From a virus (lineage: Duplodnaviria; Caudoviricetes): 58,320 nucleotides of DNA. The DNA lies in the IMG/VR virus record IMGVR_UViG_3300033149_003373, positions 1 through 58,320 of that record, one strand, 5' to 3'. The notes under the pieces are model-generated. The model made no database searches. It had not been told where the DNA came from and worked only from the letters and a program-made list of their open reading frames with translations. The position numbers and the translations under genes were made by a program. Below, one piece after another: positions 4,889-9,804 of this stretch (the stretch's first letter is position 1; each line of letters opens with the position of its first letter).

Positions 4889-5461
4889 ATGTTAGAAAAA
4901 TTGACAAAAAAACAAGAGAAAATAATGGAACAAACAAGGAATGAATGGCTTAAAATGTTGTTCTCTGGAAAAACAAAATTTAATGAAACAGAAGCTAAAA
5001 AAGGAATTAAATGGCTATATGAATTTTCAAATCTTAAATCTCCAAAAATAGTAATAGTAGATTCACCATTTTCAGCACAGAAAAAAGCTAATGAATTAAA
5101 TAAAACAAAGAAAAAACATTACGAATTCAGCGTATATGGAAATATAGGAGATTATGGATGGGTTAGTTTCTATGACTTTTTCACAAAAATAGGCATACTA
5201 AAAGACAATAATTTTGAGAAATTTAAGAAACTATTAAAATCAGGAATATATGACATGATACAGTTTGATGAAGTATGTATAGTATGCAAACTTCCATCTA
5301 AAATAAGATACATAAAAGAAAATGGAAAATATGTAGTTCATTCATATAAAAAACATGCAATAGAATGGGAAGATGGATTCTTTCTAAATGGACTAAAAGG
5401 GGAATTATCAACAGAAAACTTAAAAGATTTCATAAATCGTAAAGTTGTTGATAATTTATGA
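4889..5461 (+). CDS. DUF6745-like protein lacking the usual internal tetrapeptide-repeat segment
   Basis: Motifs LTKKQE...EW, GIKWLY...PKIVIVDSP, GWVSFYDFF, EVCIVCKLP, HAIEWEDGF match my recollection of this family. Confidence 0.6.
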   Translation: MLEKLTKKQEKIMEQTRNEWLKMLFSGKTKFNETEAKKGIKWLYEFSNLKSPKIVIVDSPFSAQKKANELNKTKKKHYEFSVYGNIGDYGWVSFYDFFTKIGILKDNNFEKFKKLLKSGIYDMIQFDEVCIVCKLPSKIRYIKENGKYVVHSYKKHAIEWEDGFFLNGLKGELSTENLKDFINRKVVDNL

Positions 5462-5659
5462 AGCAAGTTAATGGAAAAATAGATACTAAAGTCTTTGACA
5501 AAATCTTTAAAAAAGTCAATCATCAAGCTATTTTTGAAGTCAATGCTATATGCTATAATAGATTCTAACATCCATTCTAAAGTATGGTTTAAACTAAAGT
5601 CTCAAGTAAATCATAACATTTATAGAAAAGTAAAAGAAATAGTTAGAGGATGGGTATGA
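5458..5659 (+). pseudogene. MKQV-family small protein frameshifted by a 7-bp tandem duplication
   Basis: TGCTATA at 5544-5550 and 5551-5557; removing one copy gives a 64-aa ORF with ATGA overlaps at both ends. Confidence 0.7.
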
Positions 5660-5832
5660 AACAAGTCTTTAGTGAAATAAATATCCAAATTTCTTCTAAA
5701 ATTAGAGCTGAACTATTTACTAAAATAGATTTAATTACAATTTATGATGTCAGATTACAAATCTGGAAGGTAATTAATTATAAAACATATAATAAATTAT
5801 CGAGAGAAGTAAGAAGAAATATAAGAAGGTGA
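5656..5832 (+). CDS. MKQV-family degenerate tetrad-repeat small protein
   Basis: Starts MKQV; hydrophobic residue roughly every 4th position. Confidence 0.65.
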   Translation: MKQVFSEINIQISSKIRAELFTKIDLITIYDVRLQIWKVINYKTYNKLSREVRRNIRR

Positions 5833-6938
5833 TAAATATAACTATACAAATTAATCATAAGCAGTTAGAAAATCTAATTGTAACATATTATCAGAAAAAT
5901 ATGCCACTTTTTGTTCATGGAACATTTGGTATTGGTAAATCACAATCTTTTTTAGAATCATCTAAAAGATTAGCTAAAGAACTTAATTTAGAGTTTTCAG
6001 ACAATATAAAAGATATAAATGACGAATCTAAATTTATTTTGATTGATATAAGATGCTCGGAGATGGACAGTGTTGATATTAGAGGATTGCCACACTTTGA
6101 AGGAGAAGGTAATGGTAAAAAAACTAAATGGTTTACTCCAAATTGGCTTCCAATAAAAGGACAAGGTATTATATTCTTAGATGAGTTTAATTTAGCCCCA
6201 CCATTAGTTCAAAAATCAATGTATGAATTAATATATGATAAAAGATTAATCGGTGGTCAATATATGCTTCCAAAAGGATATTCTATTTTCTGTGCTGGAA
6301 ATTTAGACTCGGATAAATCAGACATCTTTAACATGGCTTATCCATTACTAAACAGGTTAGCTCATGTAGAATTGTCAATACCATCAATAGAAGAATTCAC
6401 ATCATGGTCTATTGAAAATGAATTAGACTCCAGATTAATAGCATTTCTACAAGACAGACCATCATTATTACATAGATTTGAAACTAACTTAAAAGATAAA
6501 GCCATGCCTACTCCAAGAACATACGAGTTTTGTTCAAATCTGATTAAAGGTGTAAAAGATATAGATGAAATAAGGTTAATGGCTTCTTCTGTTATAGGTG
6601 AAGGAACAGCAACAGAACTTCATGGATTTCTAAAATTACAGAGAAATGTAGATATAAAAGAAATAATAGCAAATCCAGAATCAATAAATGATATAACAGA
6701 AATAGATTTGAAATATGCAGTAGTTTCACGCTTGTCAGATGAATTTAGGAAAGAAAAGAAGATATTTGAGCCACTAATGAAAGTATGCAAATATATGCAA
6801 CCAGAATTTTCAGTATTATTACTAAAGTTCATGGTTAAACAATGTGGAAAATCTGATTTTCTAAAAAGAATGAAGAAATCTAAAGCATGGAATGAAATAA
6901 GTGCAAAATATACAAACTTGGTATATCCAGAAGGATAA
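5829..6938 (+). CDS. MoxR-like AAA+ ATPase (AAA_5 type)
   Basis: Walker A GTFGIGKS, DIRGLP, Walker B IIFLDEFN, sensor AGN, arginine finger LLNRL, PTPRTYE. Confidence 0.9.
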   Translation: MINITIQINHKQLENLIVTYYQKNMPLFVHGTFGIGKSQSFLESSKRLAKELNLEFSDNIKDINDESKFILIDIRCSEMDSVDIRGLPHFEGEGNGKKTKWFTPNWLPIKGQGIIFLDEFNLAPPLVQKSMYELIYDKRLIGGQYMLPKGYSIFCAGNLDSDKSDIFNMAYPLLNRLAHVELSIPSIEEFTSWSIENELDSRLIAFLQDRPSLLHRFETNLKDKAMPTPRTYEFCSNLIKGVKDIDEIRLMASSVIGEGTATELHGFLKLQRNVDIKEIIANPESINDITEIDLKYAVVSRLSDEFRKEKKIFEPLMKVCKYMQPEFSVLLLKFMVKQCGKSDFLKRMKKSKAWNEISAKYTNLVYPEG

Positions 6939-6940
6939 AT

Positions 6941-7129
6941 ATGAAGTTAGTCAAATCTCAAATAAATTTTGACACTAATAGAGAAGTCAGGTGTCAAATA
7001 GATTCTAAAATAGAAGGAAAAGTAATTCATCATGTATGGCATGGAATATATCATCAATTAGAATCTAAAATTAATTCTCAAGTCATGAATCAAATCCATA
7101 ATCAAATAGGATATATACTTGGAGGATAA
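6941..7129 (+). CDS. MKQV-family degenerate tetrad-repeat small protein
   Basis: MKLVKSQI...CQIDSKIE...[15 protein letters not shown], a diverged SQVx/SKVx periodicity. Confidence 0.7.
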
Positions 7130-7500: not shown

Positions 7501-7502
7501 AT

Positions 7503-8687
7503 ATGTTGTCAGCTTTTGAGAAATTACAAAAAACTAGAATACAATTAATGAAGGATAATCCTTTTTTCAGTTACTTATCAATGCATTTAGATTTTAAAGA
7601 AGCTGAAATAGAAACAATAGGAATAGATGCTAATGGAACTTTATACTACAATCCAAAATATGTAAAATCTTTAAGCATAAGCAATCTAATAGCAGTATTA
7701 GTTCACGAAATTTGTCATCTGTTTTTAAATCACATGGAAAGAGGAATACATAAAGAACATTACATATTCAATATAGCAACAGACATAGTAATAAACGATA
7801 TAATAACTGCAAATGGATTTAACCTGCCTGAATCAACATTAAAACCAAATAAACATGAAATAACAATAGCAGGAGTAAAAATTAAAGATACTAATAAAAA
7901 AACTGCTGAAGAAGTATATAATCAGTTAATTAAAAAGGCAAAGATAATTAATGTAACCTGTATTTGTGGCAAATGTAAAACTAAAGATGGTAAAACAAGT
8001 GGTAAAACATGCAAAGGATTTGACAAGCATATTTATGGCAAACAAAAAGGAGATAAGAATAAACAAAAGAATTGGAAAAAAATAACATCAGAAGCAAGTG
8101 CTATGGCTCGTCAAAGAGGAAAAATGCCAGATGGATTAGAAAGAGTAATTGATACTTTACTAAATCCAAAATTAGATTGGCGTTCTATTTTACATAGACA
8201 TATAACTAATCAAATTCCATCAGATTATTCTTGGAGTAGGCAATCAAAACGCTCTTTAGCAACAGGATTTTATATGCCTTCGGTTGTTAAAGAGAATCTT
8301 GATATAGTTGTATCAGTTGATACAAGTGGAAGTATCTCACAAAAAGAATTAACACAATTCTTATCAGAAATAATTGGAATATCAAAATCATTCAGTTCTG
8401 TAAGTATGACACTTATAATTTGTGATTGTAAAATTCATGATGTAATAGAAATAAGCAATGGCAACATAGAAAAGATAATGAATCTTAAGATAAAAGGTGG
8501 TGGAGGAACAGACCATCATCCTGTATTTTCACATATAGAAAAGAATATGCCTAATGCTAAAATATTAGTCTCTTTAACTGATGGATATACATCAGTAGGA
8601 GATGTTACAATTAACACTTTATGGGTTATCTGTGAAGGAGGAACAGATGAAGAAGTAAAAGATAAAGGAACAGTAGTATTTATGTGA
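7503..8687 (+). CDS. Metallopeptidase-VWA protein (DUF2201-like), MoxR partner
   Basis: HEICH (HExxH), [25 protein letters not shown] and LTDGY motifs. Confidence 0.88.
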
Positions 8688-9578
8688 TTTCTATGTATGC
8701 TGTTGGTGAGTGTGTTTGTAATGATGGAAAAACAAAAATACTAATGCTAGAATCAAAAATTGGAAAATGTAAAGGTTGTGATGAAGAAAAAATAGTTTTC
8801 AGAGGAATTGATTATAAAAAAACTAAACGTTTTTGTGTATGGTTTTGTAAAAAATGTAGAAAAGATATGTATAAAAATTTTAAAACCTTCAAGACTAAAA
8901 AAGAAGCAGAGGGTTATATATTTGTTGAAAGTTTATAATTATGTATTCAATTCTAAATTGTTATGGTTATTATCATATAGAAAAACACGATATTGGTATT
9001 TGTGGTTTTTGCTTTAAGAAAAAGAAAGTATGGAAAAGTATGTATTATACAACAGATGGAAAGAAATATTTTAAAAATGGAACTTATGCATGTAAAAAAT
9101 GTATAGATGCTAGAGAATGGGAAAGATTAGGAAAAGTTAAAACAATAAAAGAAGCAAAAGAAGTTATAAAAAGAGCATTATTTGTTGATTCATTATGAAA
9201 CCTATATTTGAGAAAACATTTGATAAATTAGCAGTAACGAAAGAAGATAAAACAGAAGAAAGAAAGGAAATAGAGTTTGGGTTGGGGTTAGTAGATAAAT
9301 TTAAAGATTCAAATTTTCCTACAAAAGCACATCTTAAACCATCTATGATATACTCTAAAAAATGGATATTTAAAAACGATTTTGGGATATCAGTTGTAAG
9401 AGGATTCGGCACTTATGGTTCTGAAAAGAAACTATTTGAAATAGCAGTATTATATAAAGGAGAGTTACATTTTAACAATCCAATAGCTAATGGAGATGTA
9501 AAAGGATATTTAACAGAAAAAGATGTGTTGAAAATAGGAAAAAAGATAGCAAACTTATCAATATTAGATTTTTTATGA
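8684..9578 (+). other. Three small hypothetical genes (two Cys-rich Zn-binding: 8684..8938, 8941..9198; plus 9195..9578)
   Basis: CxxC pairs; C-termini FVESL, FVDSL, ILDFL. Confidence 0.7.
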
Positions 9579-9588
9579 GTTGATATAT

Positions 9589-9804
9589 ATGAAACAAGTA
9601 AATTCTCAAGTCAGTTCTCAAGTCGGGTCTCAAGTCTGGTCTCAAGTCAGGTCTCAAGTCAGGTCTCAAGTCAGGTCTCAAGTAGATTCTAAAATCGTGA
9701 ATAGTATAGATTATAAAGTCTATAATAATATCTGGGTTAATCTATTGCATCAAGTCAAGCATCAAATATTAAGACAATTAAAAATAATACTTGAGATGAA
9801 ATAA
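9589..9804 (+). CDS. Second SQVx-repeat protein (7 units at 9604-9687, then a degenerate tail)
   Basis: MKQVN(SQVx)7SKIV...; same 12-bp unit as 7147-7470. Confidence 0.8.

Follow-up and report, generated by a model that had tools for sequence, protein, structure and literature searches.

The window analysed here is an entire IMG/VR virus record (IMGVR_UViG_3300033149_003373; 58,320 bp) of an uncultured tailed phage, with direct terminal repeats and a G+C content of about 25%. It carries at 4889..9804 a block in which a relative of the DUF6745 family, five mini-genes for proteins made of four-residue units (hereafter tetrads) and an ATPase-VWA gene pair follow each other so closely that the question arises whether they work as one system. 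An earlier note, made from the sequence alone, had suggested that they do, the repeat module of a DUF6745 protein having been split off into separate subunits acting in trans together with a MoxR-VWA chaperone/protease. Our analysis points to a different answer, in which we have somewhat more than even confidence: two separate modules are interleaved in the early gene array of a phage, namely a reduced and split DUF6745 system (module A) and a common ATPase-VWA pair (module B), apparently brought together by chance of location. The features on which the argument turns are the following.

4889..5461, + strand: truncated DUF6745-type core gene, with the N-terminal 'DSP' domain, the first subdomain (YGNIGDYGWVSFYDFF ... 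WEDGF) and an unrelated 25-aa tail
5458..5659, + strand: tetrad mini-gene t1, broken; frame 1 covers 5458..5568 (36 aa) and is followed by the +1 frame
5656..5832, + strand: tetrad mini-gene t2, 58 aa, degenerate; its product is predicted to dock on the product of 4889..5461
5829..6938, + strand: AAA+ ATPase of the AAA_5/MoxR/midasin type, phrog_1297, with Walker A GIGKS and Walker B LDE
6941..7129, + strand: tetrad mini-gene t3, 62 aa, degenerate, recognised by the tetrad pattern
7132..7500, + strand: tetrad mini-gene t4, 122 aa, 27 x (x-S-Q/K-V), phrog_36210 (E 4.1e-10)
7503..8687, + strand: zincin-like metallopeptidase domain DUF2201_N (HEICH) in fusion with the VWA-like domain DUF2201 (DTSGS), by Pfam and phrog_1314
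8684..8938 and 8941..9198, + strand: two Cys-rich small ORFs, weakly alike
9195..9578, + strand: small ORF matching phrog_4074
9589..9804, + strand: tetrad mini-gene t5, 71 aa, in which seven near-perfect xSQV units precede a degenerate tetrad tail
5424..5459, + strand: 36-nt direct repeat, copy 1, at the 3' end of the truncated core gene
10070..10105, + strand: 36-nt direct repeat, copy 2, at the end of ORF 9829..10107

The coupled run of genes described before was recovered in full, as open reading frames (ORFs) at 4880/4889..5461, 5458..5568, 5650/5656..5832 and 9580/9589..9804 and, for the other members, at the coordinates listed above. All are on the + strand and are coupled by ATGA/GTGA overlaps or lie 2-24 nt apart; after the core, the order is t1 and t2, ATPase, t3 and t4, VWA, three small ORFs and t5.

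In the five mini-ORFs, the whole sequence divides into four-residue units whose last residue is aliphatic, (xxx[V/I])n, and V, I, L, M or A was counted at this position in 7/9 units of t1a, 12/14 of t2, 14/15 of t3, 30/30 of t4 and 17/17 of t5. They lead the ranking by period-4 power among the 203 window ORFs of at least 50 aa (39.7, 16.6, 14.6, 11.0 and 6.5, against a background with a median of 0.76 and a 95th percentile of 3.5), the sole other ORF in the top ranks being the antisense shadow of t4 (10.5). Four of the five are intact, start in the tetrad register (M-K/E-Q/L-V) and are coupled to their neighbours; the stop of t2 and the GTG start of the ATPase gene overlap. The claim of five tetrad paralogs is borne out by this composition, with the amendment that the gene at 5458 is broken by a 7-bp tandem duplication (one heptamer present twice) at 5543-5557: frame 1 stops after 36 aa, and the tetrads resume in the +1 frame up to a stop at 5659 which overlaps the t2 ATG (ATGA).

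At the DNA level, t4 (27 units of x-S-Q/K-V, with x being W, R, D, G, S or N) is a 12-bp unit repeated 25.7 times at 7147-7454 with an 84-bp super-period, as detected by Tandem Repeats Finder, and t5 holds a further 12-bp array at 9604-9683. The two arrays share near-identical TCTCAAGTC units and both strands are open across them, as would be expected if they acted as DNA, for instance as protein-binding iterons or recombination sites, and the ORFs were incidental. We consider this very improbable, since the degenerate paralogues are 62-75% alike as DNA and still keep the amino-acid pattern, other phages and bacteria write the same tetrads with quite different codons (ANV, DSV, SQL, DQV), and most relatives carry the tract within a protein-coding gene. 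Moreover, nine different V/I/L codons serve for position 4 across t1-t3 and the tail of t5, and therefore the tetrad pattern is kept at the protein level; the nearly uniform TCT-CAA-GTC of t4 points instead to a recent tandem expansion. Three TCTCAAGTC units, searched as an exact DNA pattern in viral contigs, gave 0 matches; t4 found no match by tblastn in 50,697 GenBank phages, probably because of the low-complexity filter, and no t5 homologue was found at E≤1e-3 among proteins of 39-125 aa (18 candidates).

The origin of the mini-genes became apparent when a profile of the five mini-proteins was searched against 1.84 billion cluster representatives, 733 of which matched at E≤1e-3 and 196 at E≤1e-10. 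The best 150 of the 733 are nearly all proteins of 300-600 aa, in most of which the tract starts at about residue 75, and the only short protein among these 150 is the t2 of the window itself. The Pfam scan covered 111 of the best 150, namely proteins of up to 800 aa within the first 50,000 residues, and PF20530, that is DUF6745, was present in 95 of the 111; the mini-genes of the window are therefore detached copies of the DUF6745 tract, their period-4 pattern x-x-[Q/N/S/K]-[V/I/L] matching specifically the tracts of DUF6745 proteins. The usual, fused form of these proteins consists of the N-domain, 20-75 variable tetrads (x-[S/D/A/N]-[Q/N/S/K]-[V/I/L]) and the DUF6745 domain, and the statement in the earlier note that such proteins carry an xQVx-type tract right after the 'DSP' domain agrees with what we saw both in the homologues and in the profile matches. 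In bacterial genomes and metagenome-assembled genomes, twelve loci with relatives were found, mostly with a fused tract (Methylococcaceae, Chitinophaga, Bacteroidota, Eubacteriales, Pseudomonadales). In many viral contigs (L003, L006, L007, L008, L010-L013), the DUF6745 match starts within a few hundred bases of a contig end, its first aligned query residue being ~68-84, as if assemblies tended to break off in the tetrad tract.

A close example of the fused form is the 419-aa protein encoded at 9407..10666 of the viral contig L016 (PF20530; phrog_31813), whose 'DSP' domain and YG..DYGWVSFYDFF / SGIYDMIQ core are homologous to those of the window and whose tract motif, SQV[WRGED], is the same tetrad motif; across the DUF6745 family, identity with the window core is 33-52%. 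These fused genes share with the window core their setting, a phage non-structural region. In contrast to the fused proteins, the window has lost the tract from the core and encodes it as five separate genes, and its core ends after the first subdomain.

The core product of 190 aa is assigned to the family through its relatives. It has 28 homologues (E 1e-43 to 7e-15), 21 of them with a precomputed PF20530 annotation, and hmmscan confirmed the domain in P0004 and P0028, the match spanning about residues 125-284 of the full-length homologues. Pfam itself is silent, as the product of 4880..5461 gave no match even at E≤10 and so stays below the PF20530 cut-off of 27 bits, and a PF20530 search of the window returned nothing; the proposed relationship to DUF6745 is thus upheld by the homologues and not by a direct domain match. 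In 50,697 GenBank phages, tblastn gave no match to the core product. As derived from the alignment and hmmscan, the family plan comprises an N-terminal 'DSP' domain of ~75 aa, an optional tetrad tract and the DUF6745 domain, which starts from YG..DYGWVSFYDFF. The window core keeps the N-domain and the start of the DUF6745 domain up to WEDGF and then runs into 25 unrelated residues; compared with its homologues of ~300 aa, it has neither the tetrad tract nor the C-terminal subdomain (~130 residues of the family), and the NAExRR ... CPSTxRxY C-terminal part of the 206-position PF20530 domain is missing. Full-length homologues match the window at 4886..5422 only (tblastn), and the possibility that the missing C-terminal half is encoded elsewhere in the window was rejected, as tblastn with seven homologues (six full-length and one N-terminally cut) found none.

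The AlphaFold2 (AF2) model of the full-length homologue P0004, with a predicted local distance difference test (pLDDT) score of 88.8, has two subdomains parted near residue 170, and because of this boundary the window core can be described as the first subdomain alone; P0014, of 213 aa, is truncated at the same point. The tract is indeed absent from the core, as had been noticed, but the chief loss is that of the C-terminal ~130 residues. The tetrad tract was present at the expected place in 6 of 18 homologues inspected, and all the eight closest full-length homologues (44-52% identity) are without it; the missing tract is therefore not peculiar to the window phage.

The separation of tract and core turned out to recur. 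The tract is fused in eight of the 17 viral loci with DUF6745 relatives, and in one other, L001, a tract-less DUF6745 is flanked by two free ANVx ORFs. A codon scan of viral contigs for six QV codon pairs at 12-nt spacing gave at least 119 loci; according to a script, among those listed a fused DUF6745 occurs in 20 and short free tetrad-like ORFs occur in 24, some of which show plain QVQV low-complexity sequence, and nine of the loci listed hold two or more free ORFs. In six of them (L114, L159, L190, L198, L225 and L228), 1-9 free tetrad ORFs adjoin a tract-less protein which is itself a DUF6745 protein by Pfam (36-126 bits, with a cut-off of 27), and none of the loci listed combines free ORFs with a fused DUF6745. 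The window follows the same rule, with free tetrad ORFs beside a tract-less core and no fused copy in the locus, and many of the free ORFs in the split loci start with MK[QS]V or similar, as in the window. The arrangement, which the earlier note had put forward as a candidate for an undescribed system, is therefore not unique to this phage, seven other viral loci showing it, and a literature search found no published account of a split DUF6745 layout. The richest split locus in the sample is L190 (727..7084 of a 16.9-kb viral fragment), with nine free mini-ORFs, all with MKSV/MKSI starts, on both sides of a tract-less DUF6745.

The seven split loci (L001 and the six named above) share with the window a tract-less DUF6745 and free mini-ORFs chained by overlapping stops and starts, and differ from it in several respects. 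Their cores are full length (287-383 aa), whereas that of the window is truncated; their mini-genes stand mostly in tandem beside the core, whereas in the window they are scattered; none of them has the ATPase-VWA pair; and three of them, or their relatives, have a small [HQ]GDV ... GH[AN]H protein as a partner, which the window has not. This protein, a weak match to phrog_27831, adjoins DUF6745 genes in L001 (9541..9915), L016 (9069..9401) and L023 (7718..8008), and in L190 it lies near 612 on the - strand; in the window, tblastn found none better than E 0.11, and the motif is absent from all six frames. With the first subdomain only, a frameshifted mini-gene and no His-motif partner, module A of the window looks reduced. 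The split locus of L001 is also ringed by small ATGA-chained ORFs starting with MKTG/MRTG (9003..9510, 11840.., 13175.. and 13330..).

Structure prediction favours binding of a detached mini-protein to the core in trans. Complex modelling covered one pair, the window core with t2, in three runs and with three controls. The interaction prediction score from aligned errors (ipSAE) was 0.93, 0.94 and 0.94, against 0.30 for the best of the three controls; in the calibration of the tool, 58 of 80 solved complexes came up to this mark, as did 2 of 110 mismatched pairs. The pLDDT of the partner was 91, and contacts agreed between runs by at least 97%. The predicted core interface includes residues 77-98, with the YGNIGDYGWVSFYDFF motif, and 122-129. 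On the side of t2, the contacts named within residues 13-38 comprise 6/6 residues at tetrad position 3, 6/6 at position 4, 3/7 at position 1 and 0/7 at position 2, residues not named being uncertain rather than free. The model fits an arrangement in which the conserved Q/K-V/I stripe docks and the variable face is displayed. Thus, of the suggestion that the repeat module has been split into trans-acting subunits, the detachment of the tract is supported by the homologies, and the docking of t2 is so far a prediction.

These data also bear on the possibility that the DUF6745 system of the window is eroding and that the mini-ORFs are slippage-prone repeat relics without present function. The core without its C-terminal subdomain, whose unrelated tail shares the 36-nt repeat with ORF 9829..10107, the frameshift in t1, the absence of the His-motif partner of L001, L023 and L190 and the resemblance of t4 to a recent tandem expansion could all be read in this way. 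On the other hand, four of the five mini-ORFs are intact, in tetrad register and translationally coupled, period 4 is kept through diverse codons, the truncation falls at a subdomain boundary and recurs in P0014, and the complex model passes its controls; we therefore regard decay as unlikely, although it is the alternative that we would take most seriously. The copies of the 36-nt repeat are 81% identical, encode the last codons of the core (...FINRKVVDNL) and of ORF 9829..10107 (...FINKNIVDNL) and bracket the whole 4.6-kb block, and the pair may be a recombination scar.

On this basis, we propose that module A, the reduced split DUF6745 system, would work with a tract-less core and five small all-tetrad proteins in place of one fused protein. 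Each mini-protein would be a long helix or a helical hairpin, whose Q/K-V/I stripe (tetrad positions 3 and 4) would dock on the aromatic YG..DYGWVSFYDFF / SGIYDMIQ surface of the core, with the hypervariable position 1 (W/R/D/G) and position 2 pointing outward. With a docked stripe and a variable outward face, one core could carry exchangeable surfaces, with which it would probably bind a target in the host or in a rival at an early stage of infection.

Module B pairs a MoxR/midasin-like AAA+ ATPase with a DUF2201 zincin-VWA protein. In the 7503..8687 product, DUF2201_N (E 1.7e-37, 129.9 bits) and DUF2201 (E 7.2e-22, 78.2 bits) are both above the Pfam cut-off, and the protein belongs to phrog_1314 (E 3.1e-88); H68, E69, H72, D273, T274, S275 and S277 are invariant in 30 homologues, and 704 GenBank phage records contain a match; the name DUF2201 occurs in four papers. 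The ATPase belongs to phrog_1297 (E 2.2e-74). Its window copy matches AAA_5 at E 0.014 and 15.9 bits, with a cut-off of 22, but within the family of 30 (the window and 29 homologues) 20 members match AAA_5, 16 AAA_3 and 5 bpMoxR, and G31, G34, G36, K37, D118 and E119, corresponding to Walker A/B, are invariant. Searched against the PDB, the ATPase family profile matched midasin AAA domains (E 1.3e-28), more weakly CbbQ/NorQ, and the MoxR-like chain 2r44 (E 6e-6), whereas the window ATPase alone found only PspF by phmmer (E 0.018); the VWA family profile gave nothing below E 0.017, and neither protein has an NCBIfam family.

A search by alignment confirmed 570 VWA relatives in viral contigs, where the single-protein query had given none, and the best 80 were kept. 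The ATPase is present in 74 of these 80 loci, usually directly upstream, at distances ranging from an overlap to ~3.1 kb (L031-L110), and in 11 loci inspected the gap holds unrelated, non-periodic ORFs. The window shares the ATPase-then-VWA order and the intact motifs with the other phrog_1297/phrog_1314 pairs of phages; it differs from many family members in that its ATPase is below the Pfam cut-offs, and from the other pairs in having tetrad genes between and around the two genes. The space between and around ATPase and VWA resembles a slot of variable content in which accessory genes usually land. In our reading, module B is this widespread phage pair with its catalytic motifs intact, and the tetrad genes occupy its variable space.

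The earlier note had instead tied the mini-proteins to this pair, as adaptors, substrates or decoys; in such a single system, the MoxR-like ATPase and the VWA-metallopeptidase would remodel, load or cleave them. The genes are interleaved and tightly coupled, no terminator-like site was found in 1500-12500 by a promoter and terminator scan (the same scan gave 65 promoter-like sites with 78 expected from shuffles and is uninformative), and the ATPase, HExxH and MIDAS-like motifs are intact. Moreover, according to Kaur et al. 2020 (PMC7159879), the partners on which MoxR-vWA pairs act are peptides or proteins, and some of the pairs are tied to a peptidase plus small-protein modules; as examples of such couples, the authors give RavA-ViaA, midasin and archaeal-virus tail assembly. 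They define MoxR-vWA ternary conflict systems by a third VMAP or iSTAND component, with effector domains on the vWA protein; in the window ORFs scanned with domain libraries, neither a VMAP nor an iSTAND domain was found.

Against a single system, none of the best 80 ATPase-VWA loci contains a DUF6745 relative, a tetrad gene or a homologue of the other small genes of the window; ORFs flagged there for seven or more tetrads were rejected, as they proved to be short and either off-frame or antisense, or to be runs within long proteins. Conversely, DUF2201_N was found in 0 of 17 viral records with DUF6745 relatives, including 0 of 10 that are at least 90% complete, and in 0 of 13 viral records with free mini-genes, the window itself being detected as positive control; and no ATPase or VWA match occurs in the QV-tract loci listed, at least 119 in number. 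The + strand array extends past the block on both sides, from ~2472 to 11032, and co-transcription is therefore not specific to the block genes. The note had named in advance, as something that would speak against it, that the genes do not co-occur in other genomes, and for the MoxR-VWA half no co-occurrence was found in any of the loci and records surveyed. We therefore consider a single system improbable, and still prefer two modules sharing an array.

Some observations weigh against this preference. Many of the viral records surveyed are fragments and the QV-tract loci span only 2-15 kb, so that the missing ATPase-VWA pair is weaker evidence than the raw counts suggest. The modules in the window are also entwined more closely than adjacency alone would give: stops and starts overlap, nothing resembling a terminator lies among them, and the two may therefore be linked in function in this particular phage. 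The docking model was built from shallow alignments of 17 and 5 rows; truncation may have uncovered a hydrophobic surface of the core, and an amphipathic helix might score well on such a surface, and the tract of the fused L016 protein, modelled by AF2 as a long helical hairpin leaving and re-entering the globular body, has a pLDDT of only 44-57. Nor did the core offer a functional clue: Foldseek with the P0004 model found nothing in the PDB at E≤1e-3, and NCBIfam has no family for the core or for P0004. Likewise, a wide VIA-align search with P0004 reached a best Z of 4.3 over 62 residues, which is no fold clue and does not imply fold novelty, and the best ESM Atlas score, 0.76, is a lead at most.

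A more elaborate version of the functional link would be combinatorial display, in which the small core takes any one of a set of fast-evolving helical mini-subunits, whose free face bears hypervariable W/R/D/G residues, and in this phage the adjacent ATPase and VWA-metallopeptidase load, exchange or trim the subunits. If this holds, a chaperone would service a swappable recognition module, a type of device which has not been described for viruses; we think it slightly less probable even than the general single-system proposal, and retain two interleaved modules as our interpretation.

The genomic surroundings place the block in the non-structural part of a tailed phage. On the minus strand, at ~20-54 kb, are the genes for the large terminase (47400..48839), the major head protein (37917..40088) and tail proteins, and on the plus strand, at ~2.5-11 kb, there is a dense array of small and mostly unassignable genes which includes the block; expression early in infection is suggested by this position. 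Compared by blastn in distant mode with 50,697 GenBank phages, the block gave no match. The Cys-rich ORFs at 8684..8938 and 8941..9198 are 34% identical (E 0.015), with similar C-terminal tails (FVESL / FVDSL), and no family match was found for either. A phrog_4074 homologue of 9195..9578 sits upstream of the fused DUF6745 gene in L016. Directly past the block, ORF 10118..11032 encodes a P-loop NTPase-like protein (phrog_1250, E 5.9e-26), with nSTAND3 and nSTAND_NTPase5 matches that are only sub-threshold (Pfam E 0.008 and 0.013) and no NCBIfam family.

The DUF6745 family is widespread among phages and prophages and wholly unstudied; the tetrad profile alone gave the 733 cluster representatives reported above, and a literature search found no published mention of 'DUF6745' or 'PF20530', nor of six tract peptides. 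The clear negative on MoxR-VWA coupling guards against over-reading gene order in the early regions of phages. To what the other split loci show, the window adds scattered rather than tandem mini-genes, a frameshifted mini-gene copy, and a minimal core, consisting of the first subdomain only, which is still predicted to bind a mini-protein and by which the putative docking site is narrowed. The same repeat can be either built into the protein or encoded by separate, diversifying mini-genes predicted to dock back on the core, and this points to a modular recognition device which would be used early in infection.

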